Under the pieces are notes generated by a model. It had not been told where the DNA came from, made no database searches, and saw only the letters and a list, made by a program, of their open reading frames with translations. DNA of 64,000 nt from Sarea resinae (taxonomy: Eukaryota). Shown here piece by piece: positions 32,479-34,440 of this stretch; position 1 is the first letter of the stretch, and each line of letters begins with the position of its first letter. The stretch lies in the NCBI GenBank assembly GCA_026026165.1, contig JAPEUD010000012.1:124001-188000 (forward strand), written 5' to 3'. Both the position numbers and the translations under genes were made by a program.

Positions 32479-33510
32479 GGTGGACGTTGGATGAAGCGAC
32501 GCGTCAAAGTCGGAAAAAGGAGTCGGGCTTTTGACAGTTGTCGCTGACAACAAGCATGGACAGCTCGATACGTATAGACCGGCGCGATCGTGTCGATAGA
32601 GGTGTGGAGGTGACAGATGTTATGGGGACTTCATCTGGGTAAATAACCTCCTTTCAACTCTTTCAAGCGCTCGGAGAGGGGGGAGAGGATCGAGCAAAAG
32701 CTGCTCGACGATGACTGATGAGTTGATGGGAGAAAATCGGCAGATAGGAGAGAGCGAGTTGTTGTCCTGGGGGAAAGCGAAAGATAATTTGGGGCTACCC
32801 CGGCGACAGACTCTAGTACGGATTGGATACTTGGTCGACGGACAGCCCTGTAGGTCAGGCCCAAGTAGCGCCTCGTACCACGGGTCGTGCCTTGCAGTAT
32901 TCGTACATCAGACAACAACGACCACAACAACACAACCACAACGGACGCAGGACCGACCGACTGCGCCTTCTGTTGGGAGTCGTGATGGTGTGGCACAGCC
33001 CAGCACAGCACGCACTGCAGTGTAAAAACTCAGGCAGGCTGGCAAGCTGGCAGCTCGGCCGCCTTCTATCTTCTATAAATAAGGTGAATATTCAGGGAGA
33101 TACAAGGGATAGGAAGGAGAACAGCGAGAGGAAGGTGGATGGCCGTTGTCTACGTCTGGCTGCTGCAACTGGAACGGTAGTTTCACTGTAACCGTATCCT
33201 CGACTCCTTTTGCTAAGTGAAGGAGAGTCGTACGGAGTACGACAGGAAACAGCTGGAGGGTGATTACTATGTAGGGGACCAAAGGACGGCTTCCGAAGGG
33301 ATCAAACGAAGGGCCGGAAGGTCAACGGCCTTTAACGCGTTCCATCCAAGGGCGGCACTCAAGATGCCCGATCCAATCTCCTAGGTGTGGATCCGATTCC
33401 GATGCCCTGCAAGTACTCGTACTTTGTAGGTACGTAGACTCTCTGCCGACATGGGCCCCGAAAGAGGTATACCGGGTATGTCAGGTACAGCGCATGATCC
33501 TCCCTCCATC

Positions 33511-33567
33511 TAGGGCTCCATCGTCCAAGACCTCAAAGTAGTCCCTTCGTACTCTTCTCAAGCCCTA
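33511..33567. promoter_or_regulatory. Inverted pair TAGGGCT (33511-33517) / AGCCCTA (33561-33567) upstream of RPL30
   Basis: Same 7-mer found upstream of RPL42 and RPL10; 90-150 bp before the ATG. Confidence 0.45.
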
Positions 33568-33659
33568 GCATCTTCCTCTTTCCTCCATATTCACCCATAC
33601 AAAACACCAAAAGTCCGGAGTGCTTCTCAAGATCATTGCAATCCCCAAGAAGCGCAGCG

Positions 33660-34152
33660 ATGGCACCAAAGAAGACCAAGACAGCCGACAGCATCAACTC
33701 GCGCCTAGCGCTTGTAATGAAGTCCGGCAAAGGTGCGCTCGCTGTCTCATTCCTCGCGCCGATAGCACAAACCTGACAGTGGTCGCAGTCACCCTGGGCT
33801 ACAAATCCACCCTCAAGTCCCTCCGGTCTGGAAAGGCCAAGCTCGTCATCATTGCGGGCAACACGCCTCCTCTCCGAAAGAGCGAGCTGGAGTACTACTC
33901 CATGCTGTCAAAGACCAACGTGCACCATTTCTCTGGCAACAACGTAAGACGCAGCCCGCCGTCGGACCCATTTCGGGCTGGATGGCTTACCCAGCGAAGA
34001 AGTCTTCCTGTAAGACTTTGGAGGGTAATCGCATGACTAACATTTCATCGCAGATTGAATTGGGTACCGCGTGCGGAAAGCTCTTCCGATGCTCGACCAT
34101 GGCTGTCTTGGATGCCGGTGACTCAGATATCCTCAGCGGTCAGACCGCATAA
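33660..34152 (+). CDS. RPL30: 60S ribosomal protein eL30, 3 exons
   Basis: [89 protein letters not shown]...DAGDSDIL. Introns 33734-33788 and 33944-34053. Confidence 0.97.
33987..34028 (+). promoter_or_regulatory. Intronic kink-turn RNA hairpin, candidate eL30-binding splicing regulator
   Basis: UUACCC/GGGUAA C-stem, AGC bulge, G.A, A.G, A.G, G.U pairs, AAGUCUU/AAGACUU stem, 5-nt loop; ends 6 nt before branch motif GACTAAC (34035-34041). Confidence 0.7.
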
Positions 34153-34440
34153 GCCTTGAGCGAGGATGTGGAGGAAAGGGATTGTACTCCGTATGCGTCA
34201 GATAGACTATGAAATGACTGCGATCACTACCTTGCTCTTCGTTGCGCCTCTAACGTGACGAAGTGCAGCGTTCACTGCACAAGCAACGACTATTTCTCCA
34301 CAATCTGATCGTCGGCTTTTGGATGAGTCGTACTTCGTACTCCCGTCATTTTCCATCTACCTTACCTACCTTATGAATCAGACCCCAAATTGTGAATACC
34401 GTACTAGTAAAATCGCATGCCCGGGGCTGTTCGATGTGAG

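Follow-up and report, generated by a model that had tools for sequence, protein, structure and literature searches.

The gene for the ribosomal protein eL30 (RPL30), together with a hairpin in its second intron, was analysed in a stretch of 64,000 nucleotides (nt) of Sarea resinae DNA (assembly GCA_026026165.1, contig JAPEUD010000012.1, positions 124,001 to 188,000 of the forward strand). This stretch is called the window, and positions are given within it. The gene lies on the + strand, starts with the ATG at 33660, and has three exons and two introns (Table 1). A first-pass annotation of this DNA had named it RPL30, and the database matches agree: exon 2 matched the Pfam family PF01248 (E = 2.7e-12) and the eL30 chains of solved ribosomes in the PDB (E down to 3e-24). 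The Phe in the GKLF segment of exon 3 aligns with F85 of yeast L30 (query residues 2-28 against residues 76-102 of 1t0k_B), and F85 is the main RNA contact of the yeast protein according to the available text of PMC3706390. The product belongs to the L7Ae family of kink-turn binders.

Both introns are real, since RNA contigs join across them. The joint 33943>34054 (GT..AG) was found in three contigs of run X2, a wood-decay metatranscriptome, one of them with 2 mismatches; the joint across intron 1, which skips 56 nt, was found in three contigs of X2 and in one contig of X4. Run X2 also showed a small depth over 33968-34039, in data where depths mix organisms. Retention of intron 2 leads to the in-frame stop codon that had been predicted, and the open reading frame (ORF) 33569..34036 ends there. 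No stop codon interrupts the exon-3 frame in either intron 2 or exon 2 (33766-34152, + strand; 128 codons from stop to stop), and therefore gene callers often predict short ORFs that start within the intron. Short public ORFs of this kind, which are named ‘L30e’ (such as P0004, P0013 and P0017), are explained by this open frame.

Two hairpins had been described in intron 2, and all of the letters and coordinates given for the intron and the hairpins were correct when the sequence was read again. The downstream one (hairpin 2) has the layout of a kink-turn. It includes: a GC-rich canonical stem (C-stem) of 6 base pairs (bp) with Watson-Crick pairs beside the bulge, a 3-nt bulge on one strand, tandem G.A and A.G pairs straight after the bulge, a third A.G pair, and a regular stem on the non-canonical side (NC-stem). 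The purine pairs are G33996.A34022, A33997.G34021 and A33998.G34020, followed by G33999.U34019. This G.U pair and 7 further bp (34000-06 with 34012-18) make up an NC-stem of 8 bp altogether. The hairpin matches the kink-turn consensus, as had been proposed, including the C-G closing pairs. By its letters hairpin 2 is a kink-turn RNA, and a sharply kinked geometry with sheared pairs is predicted. The well-known Kt-7 has A.G at the 3b.3n position. The intron hairpin resembles Kt-7 in the 3-nt bulge, the G.A and A.G pairs, the third A.G pair, and the C-stem closed by C-G; whereas it is an mRNA intron element, and its kink is predicted from sequence.

Hairpin 2 was present in both the minimum free energy (MFE) and the centroid folds, with mean pair probabilities of 0.95 (C-stem) and 0.81 (NC-stem). 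The upstream hairpin (hairpin 1) did not hold as a folded element. Its arms (33952-58 and 33974-80) are a true 7-bp complement; however, they are outcompeted by another pairing (mean pair probability 0.015), and no counterpart was found in L001, the eL30 gene of another fungus. The two-hairpin description thus stands for hairpin 2, and for hairpin 1 as complementary letters that folding disfavours. The Rfam search suggested earlier was run with Rfam 15 over 33400-34400 (E up to 10); it gave only chance-level matches elsewhere and no family at the hairpin. No snoRNA (small nucleolar RNA) family matched hairpin 2, and the sole match, sR32, lies in exon 2 on the other strand at chance level (E = 0.74).

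Table 1. Features of the RPL30 locus in the window
Feature	Positions	Strand	Remarks
Second kink-turn candidate, 5' untranslated region and start codon	33615..33663	+	sequence reading; C-stem in MFE and centroid folds
Exon 1	33660..33732	+	ATG to phase-1 end; RNA contig joint confirms exon end
Intron 1	33733..33788	+	56 nt, GT..AG; position without intron in L001 (reads straight through)
Exon 2	33789..33943	+	codes core of L7Ae-type fold
Intron 2	33944..34053	+	110 nt, phase 0, between ...SGNN and IELGT...
Donor GTAAGAC of intron 2	33944-33950	+	
Hairpin 2 (kink-turn candidate)	33987-34028	+	ends 6 nt before branch motif GACTAAC
C-stem 5' strand, TTACCC	33987..33992	+	inner CCC invariant in relatives
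Bulge L1-L3, AGC	33993..33995	+	3 nt; sequence variable among relatives
G, A, A (1b, 2b, 3b) of tandem sheared pairs	33996..33998	+	
NC-stem 5' strand	33999..34006	+	8 nt
Hairpin loop	34007..34011	+	5 nt; from folding
Second GTAAGAC, copy of donor heptamer	34010..34016	+	inside hairpin 2
NC-stem 3' strand	34012..34019	+	
G, G, A (3n, 2n, 1n), partners of sheared pairs	34020..34022	+	
C-stem 3' strand, GGGTAA	34023..34028	+	
In-frame TGA met on intron 2 retention	34034..34036	+	ORF 33569..34036
Branch motif GACTAAC	34035..34041	+	branch A 34040, 13 nt before 3' splice site
Exon 3	34054..34152	+	includes stop codon; codes GKLF segment

The sole ortholog compared as DNA was L001, which lies on a 64.7-kb metagenome contig; its introns and those of the window gene were compared by eye. 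The L001 gene (1072-1700, against 33660-34152 in the window) has four introns, whereas the window gene has two, and the position of intron 2 alone is common to both. The L001 intron at 1421-1557 is at the same codon boundary (...SGNN / IELGT...) as intron 2 of the window; the other L001 introns are located in SIN/SRL, after YYSM, and in TAC/GK. This intron reads CCC, a TGC bulge, GAA, a 7-bp stem with a 3-nt loop, GGA and GGG, and the motif TGCTAAC follows 6 nt later. The letters for the tandem G.A and A.G pairs therefore fit in both genes, and the bulge has 3 nt in both. In the NC-stem, the two genes differ by one-sided changes that keep the pairing (G.U to A-U and A-U to G.U) and by compensatory changes (U-A to C-G and U-A to G-C), with zero broken pairs. 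The distance from the 1n A to the 3' splice site is 32 nt in L001 and 31 nt in the window. Just upstream of the L001 kink-turn (1485-1499), there is a second GGAGGG that is able to pair with the CCC of the C-stem and is used by the MFE fold; it could form an alternative structure that competes with the kink-turn.

Other relatives were reached through public ORFs that read from the intron into exon 3. The search with the intron-to-exon-3 ORF gave 145 candidates, 133 of which passed, and the best 120 of the 133 were analysed. Among the 120 matches listed, 11 were spliced forms and 2 were mis-spliced. At least 20 intron-coded residues were present in 64 listed matches; the strict 3'-strand motif was found in 50/64, the strict 5'-strand motif in 41/64, and both in 38/64. 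The 5' strand was seen as P[AE]KK, TQR[RK] or LPxEE, which are three readings of CC-NNN-GAAGAAG; the 3' strand was seen as TLEG, DFGG or RLWR, which are three readings of CTTTGGAGGG. Neither motif was confined to one frame: each occurred in all three, and the 50 anchored sequences, which fall into 43 similarity groups, include every one of the 9 frame combinations. Since the motif occurs in all three frames, it is conserved at the nucleotide level (RNA or DNA) and not as a peptide. The peptides were also translated back to degenerate letters, with residue shuffles as the null. The full kink-turn hairpin was compatible in 51/68 ORF-derived introns, against 9.6 expected from the shuffles.

Pairs were then counted in those cells where the peptide fixes both letters of a pair, with slid strands as controls; the NC-stem pairs 8-11 and the outer C-stem are the only parts that are independent of the anchors. 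In the C-stem, the three inner pairs were C-G in 62/62 determined cells. The fourth C-stem pair was paired in 15/20 cells (slid controls 0/30, 0/19, 8/27 and 4/16). The core letters in determined cells were G at 1b (30/30), A at 2b (32/32), G at 2n (49/49) and A at 1n (19/19), counts that are partly circular because the anchors contain the core. The bulge was 3 nt long in 50/50 anchored relatives, a spacing that the anchors themselves assume; its letters are mostly A at L1, mostly G at L2, and C or A at L3. The NC-stem pairs 4-7 were paired in 47/47 determined cells. Of 39 determined cells at the NC-stem pairs 8-11, 33 were paired (against 22/36, 24/38, 27/39 and 27/47 in the slid controls), and the pair types vary, with U-A and C-G at pair 8, and U-A, A-U and C-G at pair 10. 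These comparisons indicate that the intron kink-turn is conserved as RNA across many related fungi. The first-pass annotation had let its proposal depend on whether the stems and the tandem G.A pairs are kept in orthologous introns; they are kept in the L001 core and in the majority of the ORF-derived introns.

The place of the hairpin within the intron is also conserved. In the window, 43 nt separate it from the donor, it lies within intron 2, 284 nt downstream of the ATG, and its 1n A is 18 nt from the branch A. In 50/50 anchored sequences, the 1n A is 24-46 nt (median 34) away from the 3' splice site; in 39 of them, the GGG is followed within 0-14 nt (median 11) by a first CURAY-compatible site. 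The closeness to the branch point, which had been pointed out for GACUAAC in the window, thus recurs in the relatives.

The yeast precedent suggests a role for such an element. L30 binds kink-turns in helix 58 of ribosomal RNA and in its own pre-mRNA and mRNA, by which splicing and translation are controlled; this is stated in the available text of PMC3706390, and the precedent invoked in the first-pass annotation is thereby borne out. The autoregulatory kink-turn of S. cerevisiae RPL30 (under its old name RPL32), at the 5' exon and 5' splice site, was reported by Vilardell and Warner (1994, 1997) and Li et al. (1995), as cited in passages of PMC5640933; structures came from Mao (1999) and from Chao and Williamson (2004), both cited in passages of PMC3706390. 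The element in the window belongs to the same gene family, and it is likewise a kink-turn (an asymmetric purine-rich internal loop) within eL30's own transcript. Yeast ‘L32’ and L30 are the same protein under an old and a new name. In both systems the element sits on a splicing signal; eL30 as the ligand and a block of spliceosome assembly would be expected here as well. In contrast to yeast, the element is not built from the 5' exon or 5' untranslated region (5'UTR) and the 5' splice site. It lies wholly inside a different, downstream intron, a hairpin loop closes its NC-stem, and it would mask the branch-site region instead of the 5' splice site.

On balance, we lean towards the reading that the hairpin is a conserved kink-turn that senses free eL30 and blocks recognition of the branch site. 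In this mechanism, eL30 in excess over ribosome assembly would bind the kink-turn of its own nascent transcript. The bound protein and the kinked helix would then sit just upstream of the branch site, where the branch-point factors and the U2 small nuclear ribonucleoprotein (snRNP) must hold. The U2 snRNP has to contact the RNA upstream of the branch site, and in yeast the recruitment of U2 is blocked by L30. As a result, the branch site would not be recognised, U2 would not bind stably, and intron 2 would stay in. The unspliced RNA would meet the stop codon in the intron, and its product would lack exon 3 with its RNA-contact Phe; such RNA might be degraded or unproductive. When eL30 is scarce, the site would be free and splicing would proceed.

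Several observations weigh against this reading. The folding energies are weak evidence, with z-scores of -1.5 for the whole intron 2 and -1.8 for hairpin 2; modest scores are expected because the key pairs are non-canonical. Most of the comparative evidence is indirect, as it comes from back-translated degenerate letters, and the circularity of the core counts belongs here too. Moreover, pairing is frequent in the slid controls, as the strands are repetitive. Conservation of the C-stem stops after four pairs (pair 5 paired in 9/19 cells and pair 6 in 2/9). The back-translated test failed for 17/68 sequences: six of these are too short for the 5' strand and two have U instead of A at 3b, whereas five are without any trace of the motif (P0021, P0029, P0031, P0101 and P0108). 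Any protein of the L7Ae family could in principle be the ligand. Finally, intron 2 is the last intron, and the unspliced RNA therefore has no exon junction further downstream through which its decay could be triggered.

In a GC-rich intron, the resemblance to a kink-turn might have arisen by chance. Kink-turn-like hairpins (C-stem >= 4, NC-stem >= 5) were sought on both strands of the window, with 30 block shuffles as the null. Generic hairpins of this kind are frequent, as the window has 7 and the shuffles have 4.4 +/- 2.0; together with the weak folding z-scores, this would be in keeping with chance. However, the intron 2 hairpin is the best of the seven (C-stem 6, NC-stem 8), and it alone remains when the third A.G pair is required, against 0.4 expected. 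By simple arithmetic, the probability of a kink-turn-like hairpin in a given 110-nt intron is ~0.004 (loose) or ~0.0003 (strict). The motif by itself is unconvincing; its location in the eL30 gene and its conservation carry the weight. Chance resemblance was rejected because the same core is conserved in L001, the ORF-derived introns are compatible far above expectation, and the motif recurs in all three reading frames; we regard it as extremely improbable. A further loose match, a minus-strand hairpin at 33525-33568 that is antisense to the RPL30 leader, has an 8-pair G.U-rich C-stem and a 5-pair NC-stem and is taken as chance. A switch between alternative donors, in which folding or protein picks either the donor at 33944 or the heptamer at 34010, is very improbable as well. 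The two heptamers are identical, as had been noted, and use of 34010 would keep the frame (66 nt), adding 22 in-frame codons; however, GUAAG is possible in at most 9/50 orthologous hairpins, L001 has no second GUAAGAC, and no joint using 34009/34010 was found among the RNA joints listed. The donor copy thus exists, whereas a part for it in the device was not borne out; by these comparisons it is probably incidental.

Two further explanations accept the conserved hairpin and differ in what acts on it. The hairpin may be a structural intron element that works without any protein and does not sense eL30; it would tune splicing by presenting the branch site or by shortening the distance from donor to branch point. 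Stems that tune splicing are known in yeast ribosomal protein introns, such as the ‘zipper stem’ of RPL7B (in the available text of PMC12311795), and the spacing between the hairpin and the 3' splice site is fixed. A plain stem, however, needs no invariant 3-nt bulge and no invariant G, A / G, A letters beside a variable distal stem, and the hairpin goes with the single gene that encodes a binder of such motifs; this explanation is therefore considered unlikely. Alternatively, the ligand might be another L7Ae-family protein such as Snu13 (15.5K), and the element would mark a stable intron-derived RNA or act as a general splicing brake. Kink-turns are common targets of the L7Ae family, and the accessible part of a 2026 preprint (10.64898/2026.08.03.742641) describes mammalian 15.5K-bound intronic kink-loop (K-loop) RNAs that suppress excision of the host intron. 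Both systems are intronic kink motifs. The mammalian ones are stable small RNAs with terminal C/D motifs, as described in that part of the preprint (10.64898/2026.08.03.742641), whereas the RPL30 element lacks C/D boxes and is confined to the eL30 gene. Its strands read GAAGAAG (after the bulge) and TGGA, and so it does not qualify as a box C/D RNA. The consensus is RUGAUGA for the C box and CUGA for the D box. No snoRNA family matches the hairpin, and the relatives carry the element in the eL30 gene itself, which makes a different ligand rather improbable. The eL30-sensing kink-turn thus remains the favoured reading, and we infer eL30 as the ligand from the gene in which the element is kept.

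A second kink-turn candidate is located at the start codon. It is made up of CC (33615-16), GGA (33617-19), a 7-bp C-stem (33620-26 with 33649-55) closed by a 22-nt loop, and the bulge AGC (33656-58). The pairs after the bulge are G33659.A33619, A33660.G33618 and T33661.G33617, followed by G33662-C33616 and G33663-C33615; the A of the ATG (A33660) is therefore the 2b adenine. The same layout is present in L001 (1022-1075), with a covarying stem pair and a different bulge. A search for ORFs that read through the 5'UTR gave 8 usable extensions among 55 matches, and the layout was compatible in 4/8 of these against 0.87 expected. There is no splice site adjoining this element.

The caution raised earlier about surveys of structured motifs in fungal ribosomal protein genes was apt. 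Li and Breaker (2017, BMC Genomics 18:785, PMC5640933) described an ‘rpl30 motif’ with 47 examples in 26 Pezizomycotina species, including Aspergillus, Coccidioides, Botryotinia, Gibberella and Magnaporthe; these numbers would agree with two examples in each gene. The motif folds as a large hairpin whose internal loop is purine-rich and conserved, is mostly located in 5'UTRs after a long unstructured region, and was proposed as an L30-binding autoregulatory site; the terms ‘k-turn’ and ‘kink’ are never used in that paper (PMC5640933). The intron element shares with it the hairpin with a purine-rich internal loop and the association with L30 genes of Pezizomycotina; however, it lies inside intron 2 and not in the 5'UTR. 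The start-codon element agrees with the published description more closely than the intron element does. Judged by its sequence, the start-codon element is probably the published motif and a putative site of translation control. RPL30 of filamentous ascomycetes may conceivably carry two eL30 sensors, a start-codon kink-turn for translation and a branch-point kink-turn for splicing, although we put this forward only tentatively. The single site of S. cerevisiae, which combines the 5'UTR with the 5' splice site, might then be a condensed descendant or a convergent version of the two, a possibility that is held with similar hesitation. Splicing autoregulation would in that case have a previously undescribed mode, in which a ribosomal protein kink-turn represses the branch site, and this might account for the retention of the intron.

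Some other sequences were encountered around these analyses. The scan of genome_contigs for eL30 returned three archaeal L30e loci and L002, an intronless cDNA-like (complementary DNA) contig of 286 nt; no match was found in the scan of viral_contigs. L002 is a piece of a eukaryotic eL30 in a Pseudophaeobacter assembly and looks like contamination. So does P0119, a fungal fragment of the intron and exon 3 on a 232-nt contig, which is filed as a partial E. coli protein. In the window, the next downstream gene (34648 onward) is on the same strand (+) and has an intron near its start. It presumably encodes the ribosomal protein uL16 (RPL10), which it resembles; if so, two ribosomal protein genes stand in tandem.

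No description of an intronic kink-turn in filamentous-fungal RPL30 was found in the literature search, and the terms L30, RPL30, k-turn and kink do not occur in the available text of Gao et al. (2021, PMC8216456). Splicing feedback by eL30 is a textbook case, yet it was found described for budding yeast only, where the protein hides the 5' splice site. If the favoured reading is true, the feedback by eL30 would be shown to be old and widespread, and the same protein-RNA pair would prove able to act on a different splicing signal. It would also offer a natural system for studying how a small ribonucleoprotein upstream of the branch site stops U2 recruitment. The compact hairpin (~40 nt) could serve as a protein-responsive splicing switch in fungal synthetic biology. 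For the fungi themselves, the intron element would account for many of the mis-called ‘L30e’ ORFs that start inside the intron, and it would provide a functional reason for the retention of intron 2 in the gene.

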